Source: Candidatus Omnitrophota bacterium
GTDB taxonomy: Bacteria > Omnitrophota > Gorgyraeia > Gorgyraeales > Gorgyraeaceae
Direction of reading: 5' to 3'
Length of the DNA: 62,915 nucleotides
NCBI GenBank assembly: GCA_018901615.1
Contig: JAHIEN010000108.1
Location: 1-62,915, forward strand
Shown in pieces: positions 13,530 through 37,938 of the stretch (its first letter is position 1; each line of letters opens with the position of its first letter). The position numbers and the translations under genes are program-made. The notes below the pieces were generated by a model that was not told the origin of the DNA, did no database searches, and saw nothing but the letters and a program-made list of their open reading frames with translations.

Positions 13530-14275
13530 CAAAACTACATATAGATGATTTTTTAGGTAGATATAAGTCCAGAGAATTTATAGACTTAGTAGAAAAATGG
13601 GATTGTAATCTTGAGAGAAAAACCGTACTCAAAACAGATCTTCGCGAAGAGGCCTTTGGAGAGGATGAAATCTTATTTTCATTATCGAATAAGAATACGC
13701 GGTTTTTCGCCTTAGATATTTCAAAAGAAACTGTTAAAAAAGCAGATATTAGACAAAAAGAAAAAGGTTTTGTCCATAGATATACTGTGGCTGATGTAAG
13801 AAATCTGCCTTTTAAAAGTGATGTTTTTGATTTTATATTGTCCAGTTCAACGCTCGACCATTTTAACTCGGAAAACGAACTTATAAAAGCTCTATTGGAA
13901 TTAAAAAGGGTGGTCAAGCCAGTGGGGAGTTTAATTATCACGCTTAATAATAGATGTAATGTTAATTTCTATCTATTGCTTAAACTAAAAAAGCTCTTTG
14001 GCTTGACCGCTTACCCTGAGCAATTTTATTGTTCAAGACAGTTAAAAACTATATTTCAAAAAGTTGGTTTATATATTCAAGGCGAAGATTACAGCGCCCA
14101 TATTATTAGCCCTGTAAACAGCACGTTACTGCTGCTTAGAAAATTTATAAGCAAAAAAGTTATAGATAGGATTGCAAGAGGGAGTGTATCTTTTTTTAGA
14201 TGGCTTGGCAAAAGGGAAAAAACTAAAATTTTCACAGGATGGTTTATAGCGTTAAAATGCAATAAAACGTATTAA
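13526..14275 (+). CDS. Class I SAM-dependent methyltransferase-like protein
   Basis: ALDISKETVKKA, DVRNLPFKSDVFDFILSSSTLDHF and LKRVVKPVGSLII resemble Methyltransf_11-type motifs. The usual GxGxG loop is replaced by VLKTDLREEAFGE. Confidence 0.55.
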   Translation: MTKLHIDDFLGRYKSREFIDLVEKWDCNLERKTVLKTDLREEAFGEDEILFSLSNKNTRFFALDISKETVKKADIRQKEKGFVHRYTVADVRNLPFKSDVFDFILSSSTLDHFNSENELIKALLELKRVVKPVGSLIITLNNRCNVNFYLLLKLKKLFGLTAYPEQFYCSRQLKTIFQKVGLYIQGEDYSAHIISPVNSTLLLLRKFISKKVIDRIARGSVSFFRWLGKREKTKIFTGWFIALKCNKTY

Positions 14276-14365
14276 ATTATGGATATAACAACATGGCAGC
14301 GGACAAAAATCATGAAATATATCAGGGTGGATGTTTGAATTTTAAGTAGCATATATCATGTTCTC

Positions 14366-14394
14366 TTGACAAATGTCGACGGCATGCATAATAT
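14366..14394 (+). promoter_or_regulatory. Near-consensus sigma70-type promoter upstream of the porin gene
   Basis: TTGACA (14366-14371), a 17-nt spacer, then TAATAT (14389-14394). It lies in the only sizeable gap (182 nt) of the + strand array. The RBS AAAGGAGAG precedes the ATG at 14458. Confidence 0.5.
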
Positions 14395-14457
14395 ATTTTG
14401 TTATAGCATTTCAATTCTTAAACTAATAGACGAATAGAAAAAAGAAAAGGAGAGAAA

Positions 14458-15534
14458 ATGAAGAAAATCGTTTTATGTTTTTTATTTATTTTTAGCACTT
14501 TGTTTGTAAAGAATGTAATAGCGGAACCAGACAAAAACTACCCCGCGATTAAAGTTTTCGGCTTTACGCATCTACAGGCATTGTATGATGATACCGCTGG
14601 GTCCAACCACGGCGAAGAATTTAGGATTGCAAGGGCAAGGATTGGCGCTATAGGGAATATAACCGACATTGTAGATTATATGGTGTTGACCGAATGGGGT
14701 CGATTTACCTACAATGACCCTGTTACACTTTTAGACGCCTGGGTCAATTGGAAGCTCAACCCCGGCCTTAATATTAAGATAGGTCAAACCTGGTATAAAT
14801 TTTCTTTTTCTGGAACAGACAATCTGCCCAAGATCCCCTTTATCTACAGGCCGGAGGTCGTGGATGGGATTTGGTTAACTATGGGTAGAAATGGTTCCTA
14901 TGCCTATGATCAAGGTATTGAACTTTGGGGTGACTTTAAAGAAAGTAGATTTCCCTGGGCGTATATGTTTTTTATTACTAATGGCTCAGGGCTTGATAAT
15001 TTTGAGGACAATGGTAAAAAGGATTTTACAGGAAGGGCATGGATCGAGCCTAAAAAGGATTTAAGATTAGGCCTTTCTGGTTTTTATGGCCATTCCAGAA
15101 CAGAGGTTACCTCTAATTTGGGCAATGAGGAAAAAAGAGATTTACCCGAATATGCCTATGGATTAGAACTAGTATACACTAAGGAGCGCTTTCGTTTCAT
15201 TTATGAATATTTAGAAGGCCTTTATGAGGGGTATGTGGATATAAATGGAGCAGAGGTCTTTCATATCGCCACCAAGAGACCTAGAGGGTGGTATACGACA
15301 TTCAGCTTTAAACCTTTATCGTGGATTGAAATACCCGTTCGTTACGCATGGTATGAAAAGGACGCGGTAAATAGCGATACTGGTTTAGAGACAGTGACCG
15401 CTGGCGTTACCTGGTTTTTAAAAGAAGGGACCTTAAATAATGTTAAATTGAATTATATTATAAAGAGCGAGGAAGAAAATTATGGTTCAAGCCCTAAAAA
15501 TATGGTCGCGCTTCAAATGCAGCTCATATTTTAA
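14458..15534 (+). CDS. Outer-membrane beta-barrel porin (phosphate-selective porin O/P-like)
   Basis: Signal peptide (MKKIVLCFLFIFSTLFVKNVIA). Alternating aromatic and hydrophilic strands. C-terminal ..LQMQLIF ends in Phe, as in OMP barrels. Confidence 0.6.
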   Translation: MKKIVLCFLFIFSTLFVKNVIAEPDKNYPAIKVFGFTHLQALYDDTAGSNHGEEFRIARARIGAIGNITDIVDYMVLTEWGRFTYNDPVTLLDAWVNWKLNPGLNIKIGQTWYKFSFSGTDNLPKIPFIYRPEVVDGIWLTMGRNGSYAYDQGIELWGDFKESRFPWAYMFFITNGSGLDNFEDNGKKDFTGRAWIEPKKDLRLGLSGFYGHSRTEVTSNLGNEEKRDLPEYAYGLELVYTKERFRFIYEYLEGLYEGYVDINGAEVFHIATKRPRGWYTTFSFKPLSWIEIPVRYAWYEKDAVNSDTGLETVTAGVTWFLKEGTLNNVKLNYIIKSEEENYGSSPKNMVALQMQLIF

Positions 15535-15600
15535 ATGGTGATTATGCTAATTTTGGTTACCGTCAATAACGAATTATCTTTAACTTAAAAGGAGGGTGTT

Positions 15601-16833
15601 GTGTTAGAAAGAATTGGAAATTTTTTTATAGTGATTATTTTTATTTTGGCTTTAACAGTAGCGACAGCTCCTCTTCAGGCTGCAAATGAGAAGGGTGATA
15701 TTAACGATGGTTCATGCACTGGTTGGGGGTGGCCCCTGCCTTATGAACAGGTAAGTAAAAAATCTCTGGAATGGCTAGAATCAAAAGGGTGGTCGCCGCT
15801 GACTATCGGGTATTTTGCCGATATCCCAGGCTATTCAGCTTGTTATTCGATAATTAAAGAAAAACAACTTTTAGAGAAACGCGGACTTTCGGTACGTTTT
15901 GTAAGCTTTCTTTCCGGCCCCCCTATCGTAGAGGCATTTTTGGGTGGTCAGACTCAGGTTACGCACTACGGTGATTTCCCTTTTTGGTTAACAGTTGACA
16001 AGGGTGCTTTGGTTAAGGCATATGCATTAACCGGAGTTAATATGGAAGTGGCGATGCTCGTTCATCCGGATTCTTCCATAAAAAAACCAGAAGATCTTAA
16101 ACAAGAAGGAAGGTTAACAGTGGTGGGCGCAACTTTAGGTTCGTATGCAGAGTTTTATCTTACAGCAATGGCTGAGCAAAAGAATTTAGTAAGAGATAAA
16201 GATTTTAGAGTGGCTGGTTTAACTACAAGAGACGCCCAGCTTCTTCCTAAAGGCGTAGATGCGGTTTGTATCTGGGATCCGCATATAACATTTTCTGAAG
16301 AGAAGGGTTTGGGGAAGAAGATTGATACAGGATACGCTTATTTTTTTAATACAGGATTTGATTTTGTTCGCAGAGAGATTCATGAAAACGCCCCTGATGT
16401 GGTACAGGCTCTTGCTGATGCGGCGGTTGAAGCTCTTTTATACGCCGGCTATGATATTGATGGCACAGTGGATTTTTTTCGCAAAGATCCCAGGGTCTCA
16501 GCCTATTCCAAGGAGCTCATAAGAGATCAGATCGCTAAATACGTGACTTTTTATCCTCCCACGTTCCGTTATATTCACAAGAATTTTTGGGCAACCGAAG
16601 ATTCCCGTATTATTAAAGCGTTAAATGCGCAGGGTAGGGTAAAAAAACCATGGAGCATCGAGGAGATGGAGGAGGTTATGGCTCCGGAATACATGGCAAA
16701 CACCTTTCAAAGGTTAGGTTGGGAGATTCCCAAGGAGCCTGTTTTTTTGCCACTAGAATGGAATGGAAAAGTGTCAGAGCCGCCGTATCCCGGGTATATA
16801 GTATCCGAGAGCAGGCCTCGGAACAAAGAGTAG
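15601..16833 (+). CDS. ABC transporter periplasmic substrate-binding protein, NMT1/SsuA-like (NitT/TauT family)
   Basis: GTG start 5 nt after GGAGGG. Signal peptide ending APLQA. Size and layout fit a type-II binding protein. The cognate permease and ATPase genes lie at 22724-25052. Confidence 0.55.
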   Translation: MLERIGNFFIVIIFILALTVATAPLQAANEKGDINDGSCTGWGWPLPYEQVSKKSLEWLESKGWSPLTIGYFADIPGYSACYSIIKEKQLLEKRGLSVRFVSFLSGPPIVEAFLGGQTQVTHYGDFPFWLTVDKGALVKAYALTGVNMEVAMLVHPDSSIKKPEDLKQEGRLTVVGATLGSYAEFYLTAMAEQKNLVRDKDFRVAGLTTRDAQLLPKGVDAVCIWDPHITFSEEKGLGKKIDTGYAYFFNTGFDFVRREIHENAPDVVQALADAAVEALLYAGYDIDGTVDFFRKDPRVSAYSKELIRDQIAKYVTFYPPTFRYIHKNFWATEDSRIIKALNAQGRVKKPWSIEEMEEVMAPEYMANTFQRLGWEIPKEPVFLPLEWNGKVSEPPYPGYIVSESRPRNKE

Positions 16834-16861: not shown

Positions 16862-18280
16862 ATGAGCGATATTACCCTAATAAACATAACTTCTAAAAAT
16901 ACTTACGATGGTAAAATAGTCAATAGGTTAAGTACCATCGGTATCTATAGTCTGATTGCCTGCCTGGAAGATTCAGGGATTAGCGTTGATTTCCGTGAAT
17001 ATTTTCTTGATTTTGAAAAATCGTCTTCCGAAGAGATGGTTACCGCTGTAAAATTTTTTAAAAATTCCGAGAAGATCATAGGAATTGGCTGCCATTCGAT
17101 CCATCTGCCATTCGTAGCGCGCGTCGCGCAGGAGATAAAAAAAGCATTTCCCGATAAGTTTATTATTTTAGGCGGAGTAGGCCCTTCAATTGTAGCTAGA
17201 CCTTTAATGGAGCTAATAAAAGATATAGATCTAATAGTGATAGGTGAGGCCGAGGTCAACCTTCCGCAGTTAGTCAAGGCCTTGATATATGGTGGTAAAA
17301 AATTATCCGATATTAAAGGAATTATATTTCGTGAAGACGATAAGATTATAGCTGCGCCGCCCATAGAGCGAGTTAATGATTTAGATGATTTGCCCATGCC
17401 CGCGTATAAGTATTTAGATGTTGGATTGTACAAACAGCCGATGGTTATGTCCGCGCGGGGTTGTCCTTTTGGTTGTCCTTTTTGTAGTTTGGGGGCTTAT
17501 TGGAACAGAAAAGTAAGCTATCGTTCCCCGGAAAGGATACAGAAAGAGCTTCAGACCTTGAGCGGGATGGGGGTTAAACGCGTCTTTTTTGCTGACCCCT
17601 GTTTTATGTTAAATAAAGAAAGGTTAATAGGATTTGCAGATGTTGTAAAAAAGGATGCCTTAATGGAAGAGCTTAAGACATACGGTCGCTTGGACTTAGT
17701 AGACAGAGAAACATGCCAGATTCTAGCCGATGCTAATTTTAAAGCTATTTTTTATGGGTTAGAATCAGGGAGCGATTCAGTTTTAAGACAAATTAAAAGA
17801 GGGATCAGAGTGCAAGACGGGTTAGAAACGATAAGGATGACTAAAAAATATTTTACACGGATAGAAGTAAGTTTAATGTGGGGTTTTCCTTTTGAGACAT
17901 TGGGCGATTTAAAGAAAACTATAGATATACACAATTATCTTAAAGATGAGCTGGGTTGTGTTGTGCAGCTTACCTGGTTTCAGCCATTTGCCAACACAAG
18001 GTATTTTCAGGAATACAAAAATATCTTAATGAAGCCCGAGTCGCTTTCAGGAATTTATGATAGACGTATAGGTAGAGAACAGATCCATTCGACACTTGAT
18101 CGTGCTAAAGAATATGATTATACAATAAGCCTAAGAAGCATGATCGGACATTCTCACGTTTATTCTTTGGCAAAAGAGCTGATAGATAGTAACCCGTGTA
18201 TATTTCCCGATTTTTATCGATATAAAACACCAGATTTAGACAAAAAACTAGATATAGTAAACAAAATAGTCCCTAATTAA
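16862..18280 (+). CDS. B12-binding-domain radical SAM protein (paralog group 2, copy A)
   Basis: Starts MSDITLIN, as do 18307 and 21215. IGIGCHSIHLPF...ILGGVGPS (B12-like domain), ARGCPFGCPFC, GLESGSD. Confidence 0.75.
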   Translation: MSDITLINITSKNTYDGKIVNRLSTIGIYSLIACLEDSGISVDFREYFLDFEKSSSEEMVTAVKFFKNSEKIIGIGCHSIHLPFVARVAQEIKKAFPDKFIILGGVGPSIVARPLMELIKDIDLIVIGEAEVNLPQLVKALIYGGKKLSDIKGIIFREDDKIIAAPPIERVNDLDDLPMPAYKYLDVGLYKQPMVMSARGCPFGCPFCSLGAYWNRKVSYRSPERIQKELQTLSGMGVKRVFFADPCFMLNKERLIGFADVVKKDALMEELKTYGRLDLVDRETCQILADANFKAIFYGLESGSDSVLRQIKRGIRVQDGLETIRMTKKYFTRIEVSLMWGFPFETLGDLKKTIDIHNYLKDELGCVVQLTWFQPFANTRYFQEYKNILMKPESLSGIYDRRIGREQIHSTLDRAKEYDYTISLRSMIGHSHVYSLAKELIDSNPCIFPDFYRYKTPDLDKKLDIVNKIVPN

Positions 18281-18306: not shown

Positions 18307-19749
18307 ATGAGTGATATTACTTTAATAAATTTAACTATAGCAAAACATTTTAGCGGCAAGGTAGTCTATAAGCATAATTCGGTTGGAGTATTTCGATTGA
18401 TCGCTGTCCTTGAAAAGGCAGGATTTAAAGTCAATTTTTCCGAATATTGTTTGGATCATAGAAATTCTTTTTCGGAAGAGATAAAATGTTTTATATCCAT
18501 TATAGATCCTGCTTCTCCGCTTATAGGCATAGGGTGCCATTCGGTACATCTTCCTTTTGCAGTAATGGCCGCAAAAGAGTTAAAAAAAAGATTTCCTGAT
18601 AAAAAAATTATTATGGGGGGCATTGGCCCCTCTATGGTAGCTAAAAAATTATTAGAGAGATTTGATTTTATAAACGCTGTAGTGATTGGTGAAGCCGAAG
18701 AAACCATTGTGGAGGTTGTAAAAAATAGCATCAAAAGTTTTAAAGGCATAAAGGGCGTGCTTTATAGAGACAATGGCACTGTGGGTGTTAATGCGCCCAG
18801 GCTTCCCATAGAAGACTTGGACGCAATCCCATTGCCTGCTTACCATGCGGTAAACTTTAAAGAACAATATCAAATTCCCATTGTTTTTACATCTCGAGGG
18901 TGCCCTTTTGGGTGTTCCTTTTGTGGATTAAGCGCTTTCTGGGGAAGAAAGGTCAGATATCGTTCGTTTGATAATATAATAGAGGAACTCAGGCTTTTAA
19001 CGCATAACTATGGTATGAAATATTATTTTTTTGGCGATCCTACATTTACGCTAAATAAAGACAGGGCTCTCGAATTCTGCCAGAGGCTTCAAAAGGAAAA
19101 TTTAGGGATTAGATTTGATTGTATGGCCAGGATAGATTGCATTGATGAAGAGTTGATGGAGGAAATGGCAAAAAGCGGATGCGAGGCGCCATTTTATGGT
19201 TTAGAGTCAGGAAGCGACGATGTCCTTAAGAGGGTTAAACAGGGCGTTACCGTGAAACAGGCTTTAGAAGTCATTAAAAAATCTATCAGGCATTTTAAGA
19301 CAGTTGAAGTGGGCCTGATGTGGGGATTTCCCTTTGAGACATTAGATGATTTTAAACAAACAATTAATGCGAGAGAATATCTGGAAGATGAACTTGGCTG
19401 TGGCGTGCAGTTACGATGGCTTGAGCCATATCCCTGCACAGCGCTTTACAACGAATTTAAAAATGAGTTATTTTTACCTTATGACCAGAGCGCTATATTT
19501 AGATTTGATATGGTACACGAAGCTGTCGCCAAAGGAAAAAAATTCTATGAACCCGAAAAATATACTTCACAGGTCAATATCCCCCCCGACGTAACCAGTG
19601 TTCGATTTATGATTGCCGCTTCTCATATCGCATCGTTATGTCGAGAAACAATAGAACAGAATCAAGATATTTTCTGTGATTACTATCGCTATAAAACTCC
19701 GGCCTTAAAGGAAAAATTGGAATCCGCACAGCGATACAGCATATATTAA
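18307..19749 (+). CDS. B12-binding-domain radical SAM protein (paralog group 2, copy B)
   Basis: MSDITLIN start. SRGCPFGCSFC, GLESGSD. C-terminal DVTSVRFMIAASH...FCDYYRYKTP is shared with copy C. Confidence 0.75.
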   Translation: MSDITLINLTIAKHFSGKVVYKHNSVGVFRLIAVLEKAGFKVNFSEYCLDHRNSFSEEIKCFISIIDPASPLIGIGCHSVHLPFAVMAAKELKKRFPDKKIIMGGIGPSMVAKKLLERFDFINAVVIGEAEETIVEVVKNSIKSFKGIKGVLYRDNGTVGVNAPRLPIEDLDAIPLPAYHAVNFKEQYQIPIVFTSRGCPFGCSFCGLSAFWGRKVRYRSFDNIIEELRLLTHNYGMKYYFFGDPTFTLNKDRALEFCQRLQKENLGIRFDCMARIDCIDEELMEEMAKSGCEAPFYGLESGSDDVLKRVKQGVTVKQALEVIKKSIRHFKTVEVGLMWGFPFETLDDFKQTINAREYLEDELGCGVQLRWLEPYPCTALYNEFKNELFLPYDQSAIFRFDMVHEAVAKGKKFYEPEKYTSQVNIPPDVTSVRFMIAASHIASLCRETIEQNQDIFCDYYRYKTPALKEKLESAQRYSIY

Positions 19750-19757
19750 GGAAAATT

Positions 19758-21176
19758 ATGATGAAAAAAAATAGTTTTTTTTATTCTTGGTTATCGGATA
19801 AGAGAGAAAAAAAAGCAAATGACGGAAAAAAGTCATATCCCCTTAGTCAAAGAGTAAGAAAATTATTTCATAGCCATCACCTGGTAGGTAATTTTTTCCA
19901 CTATCGCACAGCGATAAAAATATTAGGCTGGAATTATAACAGTGTTTTTGAAGATGGCCGGTTGGATTTAAATCCTCACAGATGGGCGGATTTTGGCCCC
20001 TTAAATTTTCAAATAGGCCCCCCTAAAGATGTCGCAAGGTGTTTACAAAAGATGAGCATATCTAAAAATATAAACTCATACCCGCCAAATCTTATACCCT
20101 CTCTCAGAGAAATTGTTTCAAGGGTTATTTTTAAGCGGAGTTGTAGTAAAGATTTTGACTTGATTTGTACCGAAGGGGCTCAATCCGCTTTGGCGTATTG
20201 CATGCTGACGTTCGTTAATCGCGGCGATGAGGTTATAATAACAGACCCGGGATATTTTTTCTTTGAACCTCCGATCCTGACAGCGGGAGGAAAAATAAAA
20301 AGAATCACCCTTTCCAAAAAAAATAATTTCAGGATAGACATCGAAAGTCTTAAAAAGAAAATAACCCCCAGGACAAAAATAATCATCATTTGCGACCCCA
20401 TTAACCCTTTTGGTACCATTCAAACAGAGGATGAATTGAGGGAAATAATAAAAATCGCGAATAAGTACAATATTATAGTGCTAAATAACATAACCCATGG
20501 TTTTCATCGATTAAATGTAAATGCAGAACATAGCCCTATGAGTTCTTTGCGTGGCGCAAACTCAAAAAACGTCATTACGATCGCAGGCCTTTCGCATGGA
20601 TACGGATTGGCAGGTTTAAGGATAGGGTTTTTAGGAGCGCATCCTGAAATATTAAAACCTGTTTTATCAATAAAAAGCGCCTTGACCCGTATAAATACGA
20701 ATCTTTTAACACAGTACGCGGCTATAGCAGCTTTAGAGGACAATGAATATATCCATAACTGCGACAACCTGTTGAGAAAAAACTTTTCTTTTTTTAAGGA
20801 TATTATATATGGAATTCCAGCGCTAAGTTTTATTATAGAACCTGATTATGGTTTTTTCGCTTGCGTGGATACTTCCAAAATAAAAGCGAGCTCTCAGGAG
20901 TTGACCGTAGCCTTATTGAAAAGGAAATGCGCGGTGTATCCTTCGGATGGCTTAGGAAACACAAAAGCGTCTTCCTATATAAGGATAAATTTTTCTACGC
21001 CGCACAGAAAACATTTCACGTGGCTTAAGAAGGCATTGCCAAAGGCGATAAAAGAGGCTGAAACAAGAAAATATGGAAAAGCAGTGATTGATTTTTTTAG
21101 GTCCGTAGGTACGAAGAGGGCATTGAAAATAATTAAAGATATTGGTTCAGGAGCGTCTTTAAAGAATAAAAATTAG
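19758..21176 (+). CDS. Class I/II aminotransferase-fold protein lacking the canonical PLP-lysine
   Basis: CDPINPFGT (the NPxNPTG-like motif) and GLAGLRIGF (the GxRxG motif) identify the fold. The expected SxSK reads GLSH (His codon 20595-20597), and the expected D-x-x-Y region reads LNNITH. Confidence 0.6.
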   Translation: MMKKNSFFYSWLSDKREKKANDGKKSYPLSQRVRKLFHSHHLVGNFFHYRTAIKILGWNYNSVFEDGRLDLNPHRWADFGPLNFQIGPPKDVARCLQKMSISKNINSYPPNLIPSLREIVSRVIFKRSCSKDFDLICTEGAQSALAYCMLTFVNRGDEVIITDPGYFFFEPPILTAGGKIKRITLSKKNNFRIDIESLKKKITPRTKIIIICDPINPFGTIQTEDELREIIKIANKYNIIVLNNITHGFHRLNVNAEHSPMSSLRGANSKNVITIAGLSHGYGLAGLRIGFLGAHPEILKPVLSIKSALTRINTNLLTQYAAIAALEDNEYIHNCDNLLRKNFSFFKDIIYGIPALSFIIEPDYGFFACVDTSKIKASSQELTVALLKRKCAVYPSDGLGNTKASSYIRINFSTPHRKHFTWLKKALPKAIKEAETRKYGKAVIDFFRSVGTKRALKIIKDIGSGASLKNKN

Positions 21177-21214: not shown

Positions 21215-22657
21215 ATGAGCGATATTACATTGATCAATATATCCATAGCCAAATATTTCGGCACAAAAGTAGTCTATGAACGGAACGCCGTGGGGATTTT
21301 TTTATTGATCGCTGTTCTTGAACGGTCGGGGTTTAAAGTAGCTTTTCATGAGCATTTCTTAGATCATCGATGTACATTCAAAGAAGAGACGGATCGTTTT
21401 ATGTCTTTGATAGATCCAACATCTCTTTTTATAGGTATCGGATGTCATTCGGTCCATCTTCCTTTCGCGGTAAGGGTCGCAAAAAAATTAAAAACGCGGT
21501 TTCCTGATAAAATTATAATTATGGGAGGCATAGGGCCTTCAGCTGTAGCTAAGCAGTTATTAGAACGGTTTGCTTTTATTGATGTTATAGTAGTGGGAGA
21601 GGCCGAAGAGACCATAGTAGAAGTGATAGAGAAGGGCAGAAAGTCTTTTAAGGATATAAGAGGCATAGTCTATAGAGAGAAGGGTGCTGTATTTGTTAAT
21701 GATCCTCGGCCACCCATAGAAGATTTGGACGGTATTCCATTGCCAGCATATCATGCGGTGGATTTTAAGCGAGAGTATCAAATCCCCACTCTTTTTACTT
21801 CCAGGGGGTGTTCTTTTGCCTGTTCATTTTGTAGTTTGAGCACTTTTTGGGGAAAAAAAATCCGATATCGGTCAATCGATAACGTTATGCAGGAATTGAT
21901 TTTTTTGAAAGAGCATTATGGAACGAAATACATATTTTTTGGTGACCCTACTTTTAACGCGGATAGAGACAGAATCCTCATGTTTTGCCGTAGGATGAAG
22001 AAGGAAGGATTAGGGCTTAAATGGGAATGCTTGGTAAGGGCGGATTATATGGACGAAGAAATGATGGATTGCATGAAACAAGCCGGGTGCGAAACAGTAT
22101 TTTATGGATTAGAATCAGGAAGCAGAAGCATCTATAAGAAAATTAAACATGATATTTTTATAGATAGATCAATAGAAAACATACAAAAATCTTTTAAATA
22201 TTTCAAAACCGTGGAAGTAAGTTTAATATGGGGCTTTCCTTTTGAGACATTGGATGATTTTAAGACAACGCTGGAAATGCGAAATTCCTTAGAAAACGAA
22301 CCCGGTTGCGAAGTACAGCTGCGGTGGCTGGAGCCCTATCCCGGAACACCGCTTTATAAAGAATATAAAGATGAATTGTTTTTACCTGAAATACATAGCT
22401 TGATTTTTCAGAAAGAGAGAGTTGGTTCAGCTATAGCAGGAGGAAAGGACTATTATGCCTGTCAAGGCGGGGAATCAGGTATTCGTATTCCCGCTGATGT
22501 TACCAGTGTTCGATTTATGATCGCCGCTTCTCATACTGCGTCGTTATGCCGAGAAATAATCGAACAAAACCCCGATATTTTTTGTGATTACTATAGATAT
22601 AAAACGCCAGATTTAGAAGAAAAATTGAGACTCGCAAAAAGATATAGTGTTTATTAA
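21215..22657 (+). CDS. B12-binding-domain radical SAM protein (paralog group 2, copy C)
   Basis: MSDITLIN start. SRGCSFACSFC, GLESGS. 39 of the first 60 residues are identical to copy B by eye, and both are 480 aa. Confidence 0.75.
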   Translation: MSDITLINISIAKYFGTKVVYERNAVGIFLLIAVLERSGFKVAFHEHFLDHRCTFKEETDRFMSLIDPTSLFIGIGCHSVHLPFAVRVAKKLKTRFPDKIIIMGGIGPSAVAKQLLERFAFIDVIVVGEAEETIVEVIEKGRKSFKDIRGIVYREKGAVFVNDPRPPIEDLDGIPLPAYHAVDFKREYQIPTLFTSRGCSFACSFCSLSTFWGKKIRYRSIDNVMQELIFLKEHYGTKYIFFGDPTFNADRDRILMFCRRMKKEGLGLKWECLVRADYMDEEMMDCMKQAGCETVFYGLESGSRSIYKKIKHDIFIDRSIENIQKSFKYFKTVEVSLIWGFPFETLDDFKTTLEMRNSLENEPGCEVQLRWLEPYPGTPLYKEYKDELFLPEIHSLIFQKERVGSAIAGGKDYYACQGGESGIRIPADVTSVRFMIAASHTASLCREIIEQNPDIFCDYYRYKTPDLEEKLRLAKRYSVY

Positions 22658-22723: not shown

Positions 22724-23482
22724 TTGAAATATTTTTCTAGATACTTATCATTTATAATTTTCATTATTTTCTGGCAGGTCTGTGCGGAGTATATCTATCC
22801 ACAGTTTAACCCTATGGCACATAATGTTCTTCCTTCTCCGTGGGAGGTAGTGCGGATGGGAGCGGAGTTATTCAGGAGAGGAGAGTTGGTAAGACATATA
22901 TGGGCTACCGTGAGGCGGGTTGCGATTGGATTTTCATTAGCAGTTCTGATTGGAATTTTTTTAGGGGGTTTAATGGGTTTAAATAGCGCTGTGAAGGAAC
23001 GCTTGAAATTGATAATCGTCCTTTTAAGACCGATACCACCCTTTGCCTGGATTCCCTTGGGACTGATTTGGTTTGGGATAGGGGAAGCGGAGATGATAAT
23101 GATCATTGTTATCAGCAGCGTTTTTTTTGTGGCCATACACACTCTTTATGGAATAGAAAGAATTGACTTTAGATTGAAGCAGGCAGCAAAAAGTTTAGGG
23201 TCGAATCGCTGGGATTTATTGAAAAGGGTAATCCTGCCAAGTTTATTGCCAGAATTATTTCATGGGATGAGGCTGGCTTTGGGCTTTTGCTGGGTTGCGG
23301 TTGTGGGGGCCGAGATAGTCGGTTCTGTTTCTGGTTTGGGTTATTTAATTTTAGATTCAAGGAATCGAGGCCTTCCCCAGATGGCTATTTTAGGAATGAT
23401 GTTGATAGGTTTTATTGGTCTGAGCATGGATCGTATATTAGTCAGGGTTAAGAAGACATTTTTACCGTGGGATAGTAAATGA
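22724..23482 (+). CDS. ABC transporter permease (NitT/TauT family)
   Basis: TTG start. About 6 TM segments. The EAA-like loop AAKSLGSNRWDLLKRVILPSLLP is typical of binding-protein-dependent permeases. Confidence 0.7.
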   Translation: MKYFSRYLSFIIFIIFWQVCAEYIYPQFNPMAHNVLPSPWEVVRMGAELFRRGELVRHIWATVRRVAIGFSLAVLIGIFLGGLMGLNSAVKERLKLIIVLLRPIPPFAWIPLGLIWFGIGEAEMIMIIVISSVFFVAIHTLYGIERIDFRLKQAAKSLGSNRWDLLKRVILPSLLPELFHGMRLALGFCWVAVVGAEIVGSVSGLGYLILDSRNRGLPQMAILGMMLIGFIGLSMDRILVRVKKTFLPWDSK

Positions 23483-24273
23483 CAGGACGCCTTACGAAAA
23501 TCGCGCATAGAGTAAAAAAATTTGATTTGATTATATTAGTGTTATTTTCATGGGAAATCTTCGCGCGATTTATTTATCCTCGATTTGAACCTCGAGCGGC
23601 AGTTTATTTACCAGCTTTTTCAAGTGTCTTAAAGGAATGCTGGCAACTTCTGGCCGATGGAATTCTCATGCAGCATATATGGGCTAGTCTTAGACGCGTA
23701 TTGATTGGTTTTTCATTAGCTTCTTTATTCGGCATAACCTTAGGATTCATTATAGGTCTTTCACAAAAAGCATATGAACAATTGCATACACTGTGTCAAA
23801 TTTTTCGGCCTATACCTCCTGTAGCATGGATACCGATTAGCTTGCTTTGGTTTGGAATAACAGACGCGCAGCAGTATTTTATTATTTTTATAGGCGTCCT
23901 TTTTCCTATTTTGTTTAATACCTTGCAGGGTGTCCATAGTGTGTCCAGTCAATATAAACTCGTAGCGCAGGCTTTAGGGGCTCGAAGATTCCTGCTTATA
24001 AGGCGAGTGATATTGCCAGCAGTCCTTCCAAGGATAATTTTTGGATTACGTTCAGGGGTTGGATATGCCTGGTTTATAATAGTGGCAGCTGAGTTTGTTT
24101 CAGCGCCCAATGGCCTGGGCTACCTTATTTTAGAAGGAAGAAACATGATCATTACAGAGAGGATTTTTGTAGGCATGATAACCATAGGCGCGATAAATCT
24201 TTTTTTTCATTATTTTTTAACTAAATTTGAAAATTGGATTGCGCCTTGGCGGAAAATCGCTTTTATTTTTTAA
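23479..24273 (+). CDS. ABC transporter permease (NitT/TauT family), second subunit
   Basis: Paralog of 22724. Loop VAQALGARRFLLIRRVILPAVLP. Start overlaps the upstream stop. Confidence 0.7.
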   Translation: MTGRLTKIAHRVKKFDLIILVLFSWEIFARFIYPRFEPRAAVYLPAFSSVLKECWQLLADGILMQHIWASLRRVLIGFSLASLFGITLGFIIGLSQKAYEQLHTLCQIFRPIPPVAWIPISLLWFGITDAQQYFIIFIGVLFPILFNTLQGVHSVSSQYKLVAQALGARRFLLIRRVILPAVLPRIIFGLRSGVGYAWFIIVAAEFVSAPNGLGYLILEGRNMIITERIFVGMITIGAINLFFHYFLTKFENWIAPWRKIAFIF

Positions 24274-24275
24274 TT

Positions 24276-25052
24276 ATGGCCAAAGTAGAGTTTAAGAATG
24301 TATCCAAAGTTTACCAGGATAGTAAAGACGATCGCAAGATACTGTCTTTAAAAGACATTTCTTTTTTAGTGAATCCGGGTGAGATTATGGTGTTAATCGG
24401 TCCGTCTGGCTGCGGCAAGACCACGATCTTAAACCTTATTGCAGGTTTTATTCAGCCTACGGAAGGAAAGGTATTATTTAACGGCCAGCCGGTTACCGGC
24501 CCTGGAGCGGAACGAACGATAATCTTTCAGGAGTATATCCTCTTTCCCTGGTATTCAGTCCGCAATAATATCGAATTTGGTTTGACTGCTAAGAAGGTCC
24601 CGAAACAAGAAAGGCGGCGGATATCCGACGAGTTATTATCTTTAGTCGATTTAGAGCGATTTGCCGATTTCTACCCCCACCAGTTATCCGGAGGGATGAA
24701 GCAGCGCGTTGCTTTAGCGAGAGCACTTGCCGTAAATCCGGAAGTCCTTTTGATGGATGAGCCATTTGGTTCTTTAGACGAGCAGGTGAGAAGGTTTTTG
24801 CAGCAGTCTTTATTAAAAATTTGGAGAGTTAAAAGGCCGACAATTATTTTTGTTACGCATAGCATTGGTGAAGCGCTTATTCTCGGCCATAAGATCTTGG
24901 TATTGAGCTGTCAGCCGGCTGAAGAACGCGATTATATAGAAATCAATAAACCTTTTCCTCGTGATCTTGTGCGTGATTTATTTTTTCAAGATATCAAGAT
25001 CAGAATCCATGGAATGCTACAAGAAGAGTTTAAAAAAGGTAAAAAGTGTTAG
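24276..25052 (+). CDS. ABC transporter ATP-binding protein (SsuB/TauB-like)
   Basis: Walker A GPSGCGKTT, signature LSGGMKQR, Walker B LLMDEPFGSLD. The ATG at 24276 (MAKVEFKNV) is preferred over the upstream in-frame start of the ORF track, which overlaps the permease gene. Confidence 0.8.
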   Translation: MAKVEFKNVSKVYQDSKDDRKILSLKDISFLVNPGEIMVLIGPSGCGKTTILNLIAGFIQPTEGKVLFNGQPVTGPGAERTIIFQEYILFPWYSVRNNIEFGLTAKKVPKQERRRISDELLSLVDLERFADFYPHQLSGGMKQRVALARALAVNPEVLLMDEPFGSLDEQVRRFLQQSLLKIWRVKRPTIIFVTHSIGEALILGHKILVLSCQPAEERDYIEINKPFPRDLVRDLFFQDIKIRIHGMLQEEFKKGKKC

Positions 25053-25058
25053 CCCTTA

Positions 25059-26336
25059 ATGAAAAATAAAATAATCAAGATTGTAATCTGGATTATTTCC
25101 TGGCTAAGGTCCGGTAGTTTACGAAGAAAAATTATCTTGCCATTCCTTAGTTCTAAATTTTTTACGTTTCTATCATTAGATTTTTTAAAGCCCCCCCGGA
25201 ATAAAATTTCTGATAACCCTGCCAGAAGCCAGATCTTGTTTCAAAAAATTTATTTAAAGATATTTAGGAAGCCGGAAGTTTTTTTGTGTAACTTTCAGGA
25301 TACTTTAAGGGTGTGTGCAACCTACAGGTGCAATTTGTCTTGCAAATCATGTTATGCCCGGGGATTACATGATCAAATGCCGGTCGATATGAAAATAGAT
25401 GATTTTAAGCGTCTAATAAAGTGGTCAAAAGACAAAGGTTGGAAAAAAATAAGATTTTTGGGAGGGGAGGCTACTATTCACCCGGAGTTTATCAAGATGC
25501 TGGATATTTGTTATCAAAATCAAATGATGGTTACGATACCGACGAATAACCTTTTTCCGGAAAAGATCCTGAAAAATCTCGATAATCGTTTAGTAAAGGA
25601 CATTTCCATTAACTACAATGCCGGCTTTATGAATGATAAACAAAAAAATAGACTCTTCAGGGAGAATATTGGAAAACTCGCGCAACGCGACATGCCTTTT
25701 GGGTTTTCTTATGTGTTAAGTTATGAAGAAGACAGCGATAATTGGACCGATCTTATCAAGGATGCTGAACGGTTTAAACCTTTATATATCAGGGTAAGTA
25801 TTGAACTTCCTTCTTTTTCCGACCAGTCTTTTTTTGCCGAACTTGACCCTGACGCGCTATTTGCGAAAGTACACCGGATGTGGCAGATGAGCGCGAAGTT
25901 ATACATCCCATTTTTTTTCTACCGCCCTGTACTTTTGTGCATGGTCCCGCAATGGGTTCTGGATTCCGATTATTATTCTGGACATCTTTTTTTTACCTGT
26001 TGTCCGATCAGCTATTGTTCGAAGGATAGTGGTTACGGTACGATGGTTACGGTCAATCCAGACTTGTCTACTTTTCCCTGCGCATCGGTGTTTATCAAAG
26101 GGCCGGAAATACTTAGTTTTAATGACCGGAGCGAAATAGATCTTTTTTATAGAGAACAGATAAAGGCTTTGTTATTAACCCCGCTTATGAATAAGTGTAA
26201 TTATTGCAAATACCGGAGAGAATTTGTTGCGGCTGTTCAAAAGGACCAGGCAATGATTGATGATAAAGGTATTTGCCAGGCCGGATGCGCTAATTTTCGG
26301 TGTCACAATAGCGTGTGTTTTAATTGCAAAGAATGA
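25059..26336 (+). CDS. Radical SAM protein with Cys-rich (SPASM-like) C-terminal region
   Basis: CNLSCKSCY cluster motif and GGEATIHPE. The C-terminal third has many Cys (FFTCCPISYC, FPCAS, KCNYCKY, CQAGCANFRCHNSVCFNC). Confidence 0.65.
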   Translation: MKNKIIKIVIWIISWLRSGSLRRKIILPFLSSKFFTFLSLDFLKPPRNKISDNPARSQILFQKIYLKIFRKPEVFLCNFQDTLRVCATYRCNLSCKSCYARGLHDQMPVDMKIDDFKRLIKWSKDKGWKKIRFLGGEATIHPEFIKMLDICYQNQMMVTIPTNNLFPEKILKNLDNRLVKDISINYNAGFMNDKQKNRLFRENIGKLAQRDMPFGFSYVLSYEEDSDNWTDLIKDAERFKPLYIRVSIELPSFSDQSFFAELDPDALFAKVHRMWQMSAKLYIPFFFYRPVLLCMVPQWVLDSDYYSGHLFFTCCPISYCSKDSGYGTMVTVNPDLSTFPCASVFIKGPEILSFNDRSEIDLFYREQIKALLLTPLMNKCNYCKYRREFVAAVQKDQAMIDDKGICQAGCANFRCHNSVCFNCKE

Positions 26337-29433: not shown

Positions 29434-29493
29434 TGGAATAGCTTAAGTTTGTAGTAAAATTATTTGTTACTTAAGAACAGCATAAATGTCACT

Positions 29494-32400
29494 ATGAGAT
29501 CTAAAGTAAAGGTAGGGATAATTTTATCATTGTTCCTTTTGGTTATTGTGTGGGGAGTAATGCGTTATAGAAGCGCCGTGGTATATGAGCAAGCATGCGC
29601 TTTTTATTCCCAGATGCAGGCGATAGAGAAAGATAAAATTATTGAAATAACCAAATATATTACCAGTAATAATTACCTGGATAATCACAGGGCTTGGCAG
29701 AAGGCATTCTCGTTTTCTTACGACACGCTTATCAAAATGAAAAAGTTTAGTAAGGCATTGTCTTTTCCAAAAGAATTCAAGAAACTTATCGATGAAGTTA
29801 TTGGAAAGAAGGAAGACGCAAGTTTATATTTGTTGCAACAGGCTATTCATATCAATAATACCCCTGTTCTAGCGGCCTTTCCGTTCTATGAAAAAGACAA
29901 GCCAAATATAAGCAGTATAAAACCGTATGCGGAATATATATATATTGATAATCTTAAATTGCGCTTTACCCCTAACAGATTAACTAAGAAAAGCGATATG
30001 TGGTATGTAAACAGTGATATGATTGATGATAAAGCAAAAATAGAAAGTTTTAAGAACAAAGATGAAATTGGACAAGAGAAAATACCATTTTCATATAAAG
30101 ATTCTAAAAAAAGGTTTTCTTCCTCATGGTTTTATCAACTTAAAGAGGATAAATTGAGCATTCCTGCTGCGGCTCTTAGGCCATGGTATAGAAAATATGA
30201 AAAAAGTCCGCTAGATTTAGTTATGTATAATAGTACTGTTATTTTAAGAAATGAACACCGTATTTATGGCCTAGATTTATTTTCCGGACAGGAAATTTGG
30301 TCTTTTCGAGATGAAAGGAATGATAACGCGGAATATTATCAGACGTTTCGGCATCTTCATCATAATTCTTTCGGATATGAATTGTTATTGGATAAAGATG
30401 TAATATTCACTGAGCTGGAAGGATTGCTTTTAGCGGTAAAATTTTTAGGTTCAAATACTCCGCAACTATTGTGGAAGCGTAATCTTGGGGAATATACCCT
30501 ATGCGCAAAACCAATAAAAGTAAAAGAAATCCTTGTCGTGGGAGTGATTAATGCAAGAGGCGAATTATGGATATGCGGGTTTGATTCTAAGAATGGGGAA
30601 TTACAGTGGAATACATACATTGGCACATCGTCTTTCTTTTCTCCCGTGAGTATGCTATCAGTGGCTTATGGCGATAACGTAATTTTAGGTACTAATCATG
30701 GGGTCTTACTATGTTTGTCGGTAGTTGATGGAACACTTCTTTGGTTGAGAAAATACCAGCCAAAACAATTCAAACTTTTTGATTATTGGGAGCAGAAGTA
30801 CTATTTGGGTAGATTCACAGGGAAAGGGTATATTAAATATGATACTCAATTTATGGAAATTGAAAGGCCAGGGGTTTTGTACTATAAGCCCCGTGAATCC
30901 GAATATTTTTATATGGTCGACATTGAAAACGGGGCATTGCAAGAAGAAATAATAACTAATGTAAACGGATCGCTTATGTTAAATGTCCTTAATAATAAAG
31001 CGATCTTCTTTAAACCCTTAAACTCCAAAAAGAATGCCTCAGAAATATTGGCCATCGACTTAGAAAACGGAAAGTGTATTTCGAGTTTTAAACTAAGGGG
31101 CAAGATATTTAAGGGGGTAACAAAAAATAATAATACAATAGTATTTAAAATCAGCGATACGGTTTACATGTTGCGGGAGGAAAAAGGTAAAATAATGTGT
31201 AGTAAGACAGGAGTTACTGCTCCCGGATGGCTATTAGCAAACGAAAATAATTTGTTATTTTTTGGAGAGAGGGAAACCCTAAGATGTATAAAATTGACAC
31301 AGCGGGACGCTTCAAATGATTTCCAAAAGGGTCCTACGTCAAAATTTTTGGCAGAAAACAAAAAAGTGTTTGCTATGCTGGAAAAGGCGTTGCAAATAGA
31401 TGATAAAGATAAGAAAAAAATACTTATTAGCAAAATTAATGTTCTGCTGTCCCAGGCAGATAAATTTACTATTCATCCCGCTGACTTTTTCTCTTTTCTT
31501 GTTGCTAATAAAGAAACCTTGAAACATCCGATATGGAAGGAGTTTATCTCAGTATTGAATAAGTTATTCGCCGATCAGGTTGTAACATATAAAGATATTG
31601 AGATAAAGTTTTCAAATTTTTTATATGAGAGCAAGCTTTTGAAAAAACCAAACTCTGAGAAACGGAGTCTCCTCTTACAATCGGCATTTGATAACGATAA
31701 AATTAGTCCTAAAATTAAAGCAAGAGGAGAAAAAATATTTTTGGTCCCAATAGATACGCAAGAAGGAGAAGGGAAGGTGGATTTTTTGCTTCTCTTAAAT
31801 AACGATCAGCTTATTTGTGCTGAAGAAAATGGCAGTATTAGGTGGGTAAGAAAGGTGTTTTATTCGCCACAGATATTAGAGATCAACTCAAGCTTAGATA
31901 TGCATGAGGGTCGAATGTACGCCGATAATATTATTGCTTATTTAGTTAATGATACTCTCGTTGTAAATGATAGCGTAAATGTTTTGGGGATTAACGTGGG
32001 CGACGGCGGTTATCTCTGGAGCATAACAAATCAAGGCCCTGCATTTAAGGATGAAAAACAGTCACCGGAATTGTGGAAAGATAGCTCTATGCTTTTTAAA
32101 AGATACGGTGTGAAGAAATCATTTGTAGAAAAAGTGAAAATGCATATGCAATTTATAGATGGCCGCCTTATCATTGTACACGCCAACAAAATATATTTAG
32201 TCAATCCGGAAACAGGCTTCTGTGAACAGCGTCGGAAGCTAGATATAAAAGGGGCAATGCAAGTGGTAGCTTTTGATCATCTGATTTATATTGTAGATAG
32301 TGAAACGAATAATGTACGCATCTTTGATAAGGTCCTTAGATCTATTGCGCAATATCCGATTAATTTTAAGGATAAAGAAAGCTATTGCCCGAAGTTAATA

Positions 32401-33105
32401 TTTCACAACAAATATGTGTTTGTAAGTGAAAAATCCAAAATATTTGTTCTTAATAAAACAAGCGGAGAATTGATTAATATAATTCATCTGGAAAGCATTG
32501 AAGATTATTATGTTGAGGTGAATAATGATAATTTACTTGTAATTGTACCATTACAATCTATTAGGTGTTTTGATCTAGCCAGCAATGAATTTAATGAAAA
32601 ATGGGCATATAAGCAAGATGCCGGGTTGAGACTAGAGGCTGAAGTTTCCTCGAAGACAAAACCTAACTTTTACTTTGTTCTTGAGAACAGGTCTATATTT
32701 TTCATTTACAAAAATACCGATACATACGAAGCAGCTCTTATTGATATCGAAATCGGAGAGGTTAAGTATGAGACTGTGCTGGATGGCGTAAAAGGAAGAT
32801 TTTTTAATATGTCTAACAGTCAAGAAAGAAAAGGGTCATTGTATTTTTCAATAACAACCCAGCGGTGTCATGAAAATGACGAAAAGAGCGAATTATTTAA
32901 AAAGGCAAAACGTTTACCTGTATGGACCCACCTGATTGAAGTTGACTATCTAAAAGGAGAAATTATGAGAAATGAAACAATAGTAGCGGGTGCGTCTGAT
33001 TATGCCTTTGAAAAGAACGTATTTACTCAGACAAATGCCAATATTTTTTGTTCCATTAATGGCAATCTATTGTACGAATTTTTACCAGAGAGTGACTGGC
33101 AATAA
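29494..33105 (+). CDS. Large membrane-anchored protein with PQQ/BamB-like beta-propeller repeats
   Basis: The ATG at 29494 gives MRSKVKVGIILSLFLLVIVWGV (basic residues plus TM). The ORF track uses a TTG at 29464. Repeated propeller-type motifs are IYGLDLFSGQEIWSF, GFDSKNGELQWN, LSVVDGTLLWL, INVGDGGYLWS and VNPETGF. Confidence 0.55.
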   Translation: MRSKVKVGIILSLFLLVIVWGVMRYRSAVVYEQACAFYSQMQAIEKDKIIEITKYITSNNYLDNHRAWQKAFSFSYDTLIKMKKFSKALSFPKEFKKLIDEVIGKKEDASLYLLQQAIHINNTPVLAAFPFYEKDKPNISSIKPYAEYIYIDNLKLRFTPNRLTKKSDMWYVNSDMIDDKAKIESFKNKDEIGQEKIPFSYKDSKKRFSSSWFYQLKEDKLSIPAAALRPWYRKYEKSPLDLVMYNSTVILRNEHRIYGLDLFSGQEIWSFRDERNDNAEYYQTFRHLHHNSFGYELLLDKDVIFTELEGLLLAVKFLGSNTPQLLWKRNLGEYTLCAKPIKVKEILVVGVINARGELWICGFDSKNGELQWNTYIGTSSFFSPVSMLSVAYGDNVILGTNHGVLLCLSVVDGTLLWLRKYQPKQFKLFDYWEQKYYLGRFTGKGYIKYDTQFMEIERPGVLYYKPRESEYFYMVDIENGALQEEIITNVNGSLMLNVLNNKAIFFKPLNSKKNASEILAIDLENGKCISSFKLRGKIFKGVTKNNNTIVFKISDTVYMLREEKGKIMCSKTGVTAPGWLLANENNLLFFGERETLRCIKLTQRDASNDFQKGPTSKFLAENKKVFAMLEKALQIDDKDKKKILISKINVLLSQADKFTIHPADFFSFLVANKETLKHPIWKEFISVLNKLFADQVVTYKDIEIKFSNFLYESKLLKKPNSEKRSLLLQSAFDNDKISPKIKARGEKIFLVPIDTQEGEGKVDFLLLLNNDQLICAEENGSIRWVRKVFYSPQILEINSSLDMHEGRMYADNIIAYLVNDTLVVNDSVNVLGINVGDGGYLWSITNQGPAFKDEKQSPELWKDSSMLFKRYGVKKSFVEKVKMHMQFIDGRLIIVHANKIYLVNPETGFCEQRRKLDIKGAMQVVAFDHLIYIVDSETNNVRIFDKVLRSIAQYPINFKDKESYCPKLIFHNKYVFVSEKSKIFVLNKTSGELINIIHLESIEDYYVEVNNDNLLVIVPLQSIRCFDLASNEFNEKWAYKQDAGLRLEAEVSSKTKPNFYFVLENRSIFFIYKNTDTYEAALIDIEIGEVKYETVLDGVKGRFFNMSNSQERKGSLYFSITTQRCHENDEKSELFKKAKRLPVWTHLIEVDYLKGEIMRNETIVAGASDYAFEKNVFTQTNANIFCSINGNLLYEFLPESDWQ

Positions 33106-37902: not shown

Positions 37903-37938
37903 TCGAGGGTCCAATCGTATAATTAAGGATATTGAAAA

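Follow-up and report, generated by a model that had tools for sequence, protein, structure and literature searches.

A histidine-type family of class I aminotransferase-fold proteins encoded beside B12-binding radical SAM enzymes in Omnitrophota

Introduction

The lysine that forms the Schiff base with the cofactor and the aspartate that contacts its pyridine nitrogen are regarded as the two universal residues of fold-type-I vitamin B6 enzymes. In the nucleotide-sugar 3-dehydratases ColD, E1 (AscC/DdhC) and SpnQ the catalytic lysine is naturally a histidine, which takes the C4' proton of the Schiff base between pyridoxamine 5'-phosphate (PMP) and the substrate and serves as acid/base, and the cofactor is never tethered to the protein (PMC8987622). 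The same substitution introduced into aspartate aminotransferase (AspAT), K258H, leaves residual, slower catalysis with no internal aldimine (Malashkevich et al., 1995, as cited in PMC8405696), and fold-type-I proteins without a catalytic lysine are described for LCB1 of eukaryotic serine palmitoyltransferase (PMC3794620) and for Ser4 of the Serratia Ser4/Ser5 pair (PMC11726168). Here we analyze a gene encoding a 472-aa aminotransferase-fold protein with histidine at the lysine position (His280; hereafter the His-type gene and protein), located on contig JAHIEN010000108.1 of a Candidatus Omnitrophota bacterium (GCA_018901615.1), the 62,915 bp of which are referred to as the window.

Results

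The Schiff-base lysine is replaced in a full-length class I aminotransferase fold

The His-type open reading frame (ORF) is intact, with an ATG start codon 8 bases past the stop codon of the upstream B12-binding radical S-adenosylmethionine (B12-rSAM) gene, and its product is a full-length class I/II aminotransferase fold. The PF00155 model matches residues 88–413 over model positions 18–348 of 361 with 131.1 bits (cut-off 19.7), and the best solved relatives identified with phmmer in the PDB are class Ib enzymes, namely the P. horikoshii aromatic aminotransferase (1DJU/1GD9, E 4e-31) and the T. thermophilus AspAT (1BKG/1BJW, E 3e-26). An AlphaFold2 model generated from a 30-sequence family alignment (pLDDT 90.1, pTM 0.89) returned prephenate aminotransferase and AspAT as its top Foldseek matches, with target-normalised TM-scores of 0.85–0.88 and E ~1e-27. 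Relative to canonical class Ib enzymes the protein carries N-terminal (~1–85) and C-terminal (~435–467) extensions, and PF01041 (DegT/DnrJ/EryC1) yields only a partial match of 29.9 bits over residues 139–249.

The initial annotation, made from the sequence itself, had recognized the fold from the motifs CDPINPFGT (residues 212–220) and GLAGLRIGF (residues 283–291), and had pointed to the anomalous GLSH (residues 277–280) and LNNITH (residues 242–247; 20481–20498). All of these motifs, together with the cat codon of His280, are located where it had placed them. HMMER aligns the query segment AGLSHGYGLAGLRIGF with NGFSKTFAMTGWRLGF of 1DJU and NGAAKAFAMTGWRIGY of the Thermus enzyme, placing His280 under the lysine of the G-x-S/A-K...G-W-R-x-G motif in both the 1DJU/1GD9 and the 1BKG/1BJW alignments. 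Counting along the Thermus AspAT chain identifies the lysine opposite His280 as residue 234, the pyridoxal 5'-phosphate (PLP) lysine of that enzyme. Two base substitutions are needed to convert CAT into AAA or AAG, which bears out the earlier argument that the change is not a single-base error.

The D-x-x-Y motif, previously reported as altered, is likewise replaced. Asn244 (20487–20489) aligns with the conserved Asp in both the 1DJU and the Thermus alignments, and for His247 (20496–20498) the counterpart is the conserved Tyr, both against 1DJU and when more than 100 canonical relatives are aligned with MAFFT (Tyr in 104); the Thermus alignment has a two-residue gap at this point, and the correspondence of His247 with Tyr is thus slightly less certain than that of Asn244 with Asp.

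Histidine and the remaining cofactor ligands are conserved across phyla

A search of 5.8 billion proteins identified 120 close relatives with 43–97% identity, nearly all of them 455–480 aa long, originating from Omnitrophota, Elusimicrobiota, Thermodesulfobacteriota/"Deltaproteobacteria" and other lineages. Among the resulting 121 sequences, the residue 280 column contains His in 119 and Ser in two, so that the K-to-H change proposed for this one protein proves to be a family trait. When 185,579 species were scanned, each represented by one genome, ~194 relatives were obtained, the best 80 loci of which were examined; a metagenome scan added 9 loci only. Over 87 genomic loci, the His280 codon is CAC in 47 and CAT in 25, and the use of both codons indicates that selection acts on the amino acid, pointing to purifying selection on His280 at this level. 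An independent metagenome contig (L087), 99% identical to the window gene and differing from it in seven codons, has CAT at the same position.

The family is well separated from canonical enzymes. In an exhaustive phmmer search against 1.84 billion cluster representatives, no family member scored below 300 bits and no canonical aminotransferase above 141 bits. The canonical comparison set, comprising ~105 class I relatives after 50% clustering, has Lys in 107 rows at the column of residue 280 and a single, unrelated sequence without Lys; every His row among these representatives was a fragment of the His-type family. Residue 244 is Asn in 31 of the 121 sequences, corresponding to the clade of the window, and Asp in the other 90, as in 109 canonical relatives. 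The Thr246-His247 pair is invariant across the family.

In contrast to the two or three residues on which classical aldimine chemistry depends, the rest of the pocket is retained. Of the nine positions that classically contact the cofactor, seven show little or no variation, as does the substrate α-carboxylate arginine: besides the residues listed in Table 1, Tyr166, which stacks on the ring, is present in all 121 sequences, and Tyr108 (Tyr70* of AspAT), Gly140 and Ser279 are invariant or almost so. Other conserved residues are particular to the family, including Glu139, Gln142, Gln222, Thr246, His247 and an N-terminal N-F-F-H-Y-R motif; in the clade of the window, His250 is invariant as well. 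Cys212 is the sole invariant cysteine of the family and is common in canonical enzymes too. A further family-specific segment contains Lys306, Arg311 and Asn313, Arg311 falling in an insertion where canonical relatives have a gap. From the alignment, and from the numbering of the Thermus S292R mutants, this segment would map at or beside AspAT residue 292. The site at AspAT residue 292 is contributed by the other subunit and serves as an anion site for the substrate side chain or distal carboxylate.

A displaced Schiff-base lysine was considered and rejected. Only Lys207, Lys306 and Lys388 are near-invariant, and none of them appears in the Schiff-base register; Lys306 maps to the side-chain site described above and not to C4', making it an improbable substitute on alignment grounds. 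Close to the motif itself, Lys270 varies, with 82 of the 121 homologues having Asp instead, and no nearby lysine conserved among the 121 sequences takes the catalytic register.

Table 1. Coordinates of the His-type gene, its diagnostic residues and the associated genes in the window.
Feature	Position	Strand	Evidence or remark
His-type class I/II aminotransferase-fold gene	19758-21176	+	472 aa; PF00155
His280 codon CAT at Schiff-base lysine position	20595-20597	+	alignment to Thermus Lys234 and to K of GFSK in 1DJU
Asn244-Ile-Thr246-His247 in place of D-x-x-Y	20487-20498	+	pyridine-N Asp and O3' Tyr positions
Asn216 (Asn194 of AspAT, O3' ligand), kept	20403-20405	+	121/121; Asn in 111 canonical relatives
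Arg288 (Arg266, cofactor phosphate ligand), kept	20619-20621	+	121/121
Arg409 (Arg386, substrate α-carboxylate ligand), kept	20982-20984	+	121/121; Arg in 110 canonical relatives
Lys306...Arg311-x-Asn313 family-specific segment	20673-20696	+	Lys306 120/121; Arg311 and Asn313 nearly invariant
Phosphate-porin-like outer-membrane protein and SsuA/NMT1-type substrate-binding protein	14458-16833	+	PF07396; SsuA_fam 83 bits, below cut-off
B12-binding radical SAM B12_b, conserved partner	16862-18280	+	PF02310 and PF04055
B12-binding radical SAM B12_c, conserved partner	18307-19749	+	64% identical to 21215-22657
B12-binding radical SAM B12_d, paralogue of B12_c	21215-22657	+	sequence comparison
Two ABC permeases and importer ATPase	22724-25052	+	PF00528 twice, PF00005
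Non-B12 radical SAM rSAM_e, conserved partner	25059-26336	+	PF04055
RidA/L-PSP family enamine/imine deaminase, loosely associated	34153-34587	+	PF01042
Tes/TrsS/HMPTM-type radical SAM, 337-aa protein, ABC-2 exporter pair	36712-40648	+	recurs in L005, L006, L091, L097

The family comprises four clades

The relatives were divided into four groups according to residues 244, 247 and 280 and to gene context. Clade A (Omnitrophota and Elusimicrobiota), which includes the window, has the signature Asn-His-His. Clade B (Dadabacteria, Thermodesulfobacteriota and others) and clade C (Thermoleophilia) share Asp-His-His, and clade D (Rhizobium herbae, Pararhizobium, Chloroflexia, Tissierellia and others) is Asn-His-Lys, with the lysine kept. 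The family is monophyletic in 200 of 200 neighbor-joining bootstraps and forms a separate, long-branch clade. In 107 of the 200 bootstraps, the Lys clade branches outside the whole set of His-type sequences; a reversion from His to Lys, suggested by one single neighbor-joining tree in which this clade was nested, found no support on bootstrapping. Thr246-His247 is thus the synapomorphy of the family, with the Lys-to-His change marking most of it and the Asp-to-Asn change at residue 244 restricted, among the sequences compared, to clades A and D.

Outside clade A, the gene context is different. The highly conserved clade B operon, seen in L001, L004 and L011–L057 (L numbers denoting the individual loci), encodes a CoA-disulfide-reductase-like flavoprotein, an OsmC/Ohr-like protein, a 188-aa protein with weak ferritin-like similarity and a Methyltransf_20 protein, followed by the His-type protein, a CysK/CBS/cysteate-synthase-like fold-II enzyme and a LysA/FslC-like fold-III decarboxylase. 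This array looks as if it served to make a metabolite that contains sulfur or is of the low-molecular-weight thiol type; our literature search returned no description of the operon and nothing relevant for PF12147. In a Thermodesulfobacteriota chromosome (OZ244197; L004, 2614–7697), the His-type operon is interspersed with genes for an MSMEG_0568-family radical SAM protein and an MSMEG_0565-family glycosyltransferase, each scoring above its NCBIfam cut-off. The gene order in clade C is His-type protein, decarboxylase, OsmC and reductase. The lysine-bearing clade D gene of Rhizobium herbae (L064, 4079–11353) and Pararhizobium polonicum (L068) directly follows bioB-bioF-bioD-bioA-bioZ and a 236-aa gene on the same strand, and other clade D members lack a bio-gene context.

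Three relatives have Ser at position 280 (P0029/L096, P0110 and L047). These form a GLSSGYG subgroup (L096, 2588–3970; L047, 1905–3512; protein P0110) whose cluster encompasses a B12-rSAM gene, an NMT1-type ATP-binding cassette (ABC) importer, the porin and a peptidase U32 gene.

The clade A gene is embedded in a conserved radical SAM cluster

In the window, the His-type gene is part of a 32-kb same-strand block (12129–44574) with ten B12-rSAM genes and three other radical SAM genes. The block also encodes a phosphate-porin-like protein, an SsuA/NMT1-type binding protein, two permeases and an ATPase, as well as RidA, an ABC-2 exporter and a ketopantoate-reductase-like enzyme, and is flanked by glycosyltransferase, Wzy and PMT_2 envelope genes. 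The tandem paralogues starting at 16862, 18307 and 21215 are mutually 42–64% identical. Their distant solved relatives are AprD4, CysS, TokK and OxsB, the best for B12_c (AprD4, 9CCB and CysS) reaching merely E ~1e-19, and their matches to the NCBIfam models for ApyD, HpnJ and BchE all fall far below cut-off. Searches of NCBIfam, PDB and Pfam with the B12-rSAM proteins, the Methyltransf_20 protein, the 188-aa protein and the binding protein returned distant matches only and no pathway name.

We compared 13 informative loci of clade A type. Their core consists of the His-type gene and orthologues of B12_b, of B12_c/B12_d (~570–660 bits) and of rSAM_e. Orthologues of B12_b (685–712 bits) are encoded beside the His-type gene in L003, L005, L009, L088, L090 and L093, and orthologues of rSAM_e (149–398 bits) occur in L003, L005, L006, L009, L010, L090, L093 and L094. 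In 11 of the 13 loci, the distance between the His-type gene and a B12-rSAM gene is at most 3 kb, and in eight the two are immediate neighbors, a linkage that gives substance to the functional connection with the flanking radical SAM paralogues suggested in the initial annotation. The importer and the ABC-2 exporter are present in about half of these loci: the permease/ATPase set recurs in L005, L006, L010, L091, L094, L096 and L097, and the porin/binding-protein pair, whose binding protein has weak PDB matches to SsuA and TauA, in L005 and L096. In L005, the RidA gene and the His-type gene are 2 kb apart; most other related loci have no RidA gene.

Some clade A-type loci further share a fold-III decarboxylase-like gene and peptidase-U32-type proteins, the latter at 15776–16876 in L005, at 18403–21419 in L006, where chorismate mutase and PabA/PabB-like genes accompany them, and at 9942–11054 in L096. 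The peptidase U32 family includes O2-independent, prephenate-dependent hydroxylases, and its recurrence hints at an anaerobic hydroxylation step in clade A clusters.

Two known types of pathway were considered for the cluster and rejected. A pathway for ribosomally synthesized and post-translationally modified peptides (RiPPs), prompted by matches to ApyD and RiPP C-methyltransferases, lacks a plausible precursor ORF in 14275–14458, the only sizeable intergenic gap; since a binding-protein importer is present instead, a small-molecule pathway starting from an imported compound is the more natural reading. A link to the nitrogenase-paralogue/radical SAM clusters of Elusimicrobia (bioRxiv 10.1101/765248) was dismissed because no nifHDK-like genes occur in the window or in related loci.

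Several further features of the block are recorded here. The ABC ATPase gene (24234–25052) is listed with a TTG start that overlaps the upstream permease by 40 bases, and an internal ATG ~14 codons downstream (MAKVEFKNVS...) is more likely to be the start codon. A 1213-aa protein with a PQQ/BamB-like beta-propeller is encoded in the middle of the radical SAM block (29464–33105), followed by a 333-aa sulfatase/metalloenzyme-like protein (33106–34107). The radical SAM protein encoded from 36712 belongs to the Tes/TrsS type and carries an HMPTM zinc ribbon; the one encoded from 43198 is HemN/ChuW-like.

Discussion

A possible B6 enzyme with a non-covalently held cofactor

The conservation described above supports the earlier view of the protein as a non-canonical aminotransferase homologue and allows it to be extended. 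The residues that would grip the cofactor non-covalently and the substrate by its α-carboxylate are kept and those behind classical aldimine chemistry are replaced in a fixed way, which argues for an active-site pattern and not for a relic; and since the change to histidine is conserved family-wide, an unusual, non-covalent use of the cofactor is probable. From this pattern, and by analogy with described histidine-type enzymes, we infer how the cofactor might be bound, what His280 might do and which substrates and reactions come into question, and give about an even chance to the protein being an active vitamin B6 enzyme that holds PMP or PLP non-covalently and uses His280 as a proton shuttle. 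The class I fold would then have given up the covalent internal aldimine and remained catalytically competent, the cofactor being held solely by Tyr108 from the partner subunit, Gly140, Tyr166, Asn216, Ser279 and Arg288. Placed where AspAT has Lys258, His280 would act as general acid/base at C4'/Cα, as in ColD, E1, SpnQ and AspAT K258H. The substrate would probably be an amino or 2-oxo acid bound through Arg409, and the position of the Lys306/Arg311/Asn313 segment suggests a second anionic group, which would fit, if weakly, both the sulfonate-type binding protein of clade A and the cysteate-synthase-like partner of clade B. The reaction might be a ColD-like elimination or deamination, a half-transamination or one of another type. 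In Omnitrophota and Elusimicrobiota, the gene is part of a conserved module with those of two B12-rSAM proteins and one more radical SAM protein, usually with an SsuA/NMT1-type importer and an ABC-2 exporter, and the enzyme might make or consume a carbonyl or amine handle on an imported small molecule tailored by the radical SAM enzymes.

Several points weigh against such an enzyme. Binding of the cofactor is deduced from sequence alone, and the clade of the window has also lost the Asp that contacts the pyridine nitrogen. Mutants of AspAT at D222 show that loss of this Asp alone cripples classical transamination, so that the combination of Lys-to-His and Asp-to-Asn in clade A could reflect a loss of B6 chemistry, and efficient classical transamination by clade A proteins, with both residues gone, is unlikely. 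The Ser280 relatives occur in the same type of cluster, which suggests that His is not strictly indispensable; in them, either the base is supplied otherwise or the role of the protein is one of binding. RidA, whose association would suit an enamine or imine being released, accompanies the gene in just two of ~13 loci. Finally, unlike ColD, the protein is not of the DegT family, and it has neither an E1-type Fe-S cysteine motif nor an adjacent nucleotide-sugar dehydratase.

Alternative explanations

The intact and translationally coupled frame, the confident AlphaFold2 model, the CAT codon of the independent contig L087 and the presence of His in nearly all homologues rule out an error in sequencing or assembly as well as pseudogene decay. 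The two functional roles put forward in the initial annotation, a non-catalytic scaffold and a PLP-independent enzyme, are not favored on current evidence, given the invariant ligands, the occurrence of His in clades without radical SAM neighbors, the lack of a catalytic paralogue nearby and the precedent of ColD, E1 and SpnQ. We regard as rather unlikely a non-catalytic ligand-binding or scaffold subunit that presents a substrate, or a B6-substrate adduct, to the B12-rSAM enzymes. Such a role would account for the loss in clade A of both universal fold-type-I catalytic residues, for the tight and almost invariable adjacency to B12-rSAM genes and for the Ser280 variants within the same cluster type, and lysine-less pseudo-subunits are known in the superfamily (PMC11726168; PMC3794620). 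It sits poorly, however, with cofactor and substrate ligands that are invariant across phyla and with the conservation of His280 itself in both of its codons. The active-site signature is moreover kept in clades B and C, where the operons are different and equally conserved and radical SAM neighbors are missing, and His280 should therefore have a role independent of the radical SAM partners. Known pseudo-subunits act together with a catalytic paralogue, for which the neighborhood offers no candidate: neither the window cluster nor L005, L006, L096 or L097 contains a second PF00155 or DegT gene, and the fused ABC_tran+DegT gene 1.4 kb upstream of the His-type gene in L003 is conserved in no other locus. 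More doubtful still is a two-protein variant of the B6 reading, in which a lysine-free PLP or PMP with neutral N1, owing to His280 and Asn244, would present an imine-bound substrate to the adjacent B12-rSAM enzymes, and these would abstract hydrogen from the cofactor-bound intermediate, methylate it or rearrange it. A neutral N1 is also found in PLP-dependent radical aminomutases; if true, this arrangement would constitute a two-protein system combining B6, B12 and radical SAM chemistry without a described counterpart.

An ordinary but slow transaminase, with His280 as 1,3-proton shuttle on one amino acid/2-oxo acid pair of the pathway and without elimination or any other unusual step, also appears unlikely. 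Replacing the lysine in model enzymes lowers transaminase rates by orders of magnitude. A His fixed throughout the family suggests selection for something that Lys would prevent, for example free PMP or a site devoid of an internal aldimine, and Asn244 in clade A should further weaken the electron sink. Speaking for such an enzyme are the retained Arg409 and class Ib architecture, the closest sister clade with Lys and the same Asn244/His247 pocket, the activity of AspAT K258H (Malashkevich et al., 1995, as cited in PMC8405696) and the aminotransferase activity of SpnQ with PLP and glutamate (PMC8987622). Very unlikely, in our judgment, is a cofactor-independent enzyme in which His247, His280, His250 and Glu139 form a metal or acid-base site within the former PLP pocket and the Arg288/Ser279 phosphate cup holds a phosphate or sulfonate of the substrate instead of PLP. 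The change of two PLP-contact residues to His, the invariance of His250 in the clade and of Glu139 in the family, and the associated sulfonate/NMT1-type binding protein would suit this proposal, but Tyr166 and Asn216, which stack on and hydrogen-bond to the ring, and Tyr108 are also invariant, a fact hard to explain without a ring, and Asp244 is kept in most of the family.

Annotation and significance

Source databases label relatives of the protein as "pyridoxal phosphate-dependent aminotransferase" or "aspartate/methionine/tyrosine aminotransferase". The label of an ordinary aminotransferase is probably wrong in mechanism and possibly also in reaction, and it affects ~194 species genomes plus many more metagenomic sequences. 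We found no description in the literature of a natural His-type PF00155 family; within PF00155, this would be the first lineage in which His has naturally replaced Lys, convergently with ColD/E1. A multi-phylum family that has replaced the Lys, and in one His-type clade also the Asp, with the rest of the pocket kept would mean that the ColD/E1 solution has evolved repeatedly, and that it has also arisen outside sugar metabolism. The family offers entry points to two uncharacterized anaerobic pathways, the B12-rSAM module of clade A and the disulfide reductase/OsmC/methyltransferase/CysK-like/decarboxylase operon of Dadabacteria and Thermodesulfobacteriota.

Comparison with known systems

The class Ib aspartate, aromatic and prephenate aminotransferases (1BJW, 1DJU and 6F5V of A. 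thaliana) share with the His-type protein PF00155 and its fold, the N-P-x-G, G-x-R-x-G and C-terminal Arg motifs, and the phosphate, stacking and α-carboxylate ligands. At 20–30% identity, the His-type protein differs from them in the replacement of Lys234/258 by His, of Asp by Asn and of Tyr by His, in ~45 N-terminal and ~35 C-terminal extra residues and in the Lys306/Arg311/Asn313 segment. No NCBIfam model scores above its cut-off for the protein; the best is that of GntC (NF041364; 181.6 bits against 415), and VioD reaches 92.5 against 390.9. The PLP cyclodehydratases of the GntC (guanitoxin) and VioD/CmnD types exemplify elimination/addition instead of transamination on the class I fold. 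These cyclodehydratases retain the Schiff-base Lys.

Compared with LCB1 and Ser4, which have lost more catalytic elements and form heteromers with a catalytic paralogue, the His-type protein conserves the rest of the site and has no such paralogue encoded nearby. AspAT K258H, likewise a PF00155 protein, has the identical Lys-to-His exchange at the corresponding position, but is a laboratory mutant with wild-type Asp222 and Tyr225, whereas here the change is natural and fixed and is accompanied by Tyr-to-His and, in clade A, by Asp-to-Asn. His-for-Lys is also common to the His-type protein and the PMP-dependent 3-dehydratases ColD, E1 (AscC/DdhC) and SpnQ. These belong to DegT/DnrJ/EryC1 (PF01041), however, and E1 and SpnQ have a four-cysteine [2Fe-2S] motif that the PF00155 protein lacks; the latter has no adjacent nucleoside diphosphate (NDP)-sugar 4,6-dehydratase and keeps the Arg for an amino-acid α-carboxylate. 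The different Pfam family, the missing Fe-S motif and the absence of a sugar context argue that the Lys-to-His change arose independently of ColD, E1 and SpnQ, and we therefore propose a second, convergent origin of a lysine-free, His-type B6 site, with a further Asp-to-Asn step in the clade linked to radical SAM genes.

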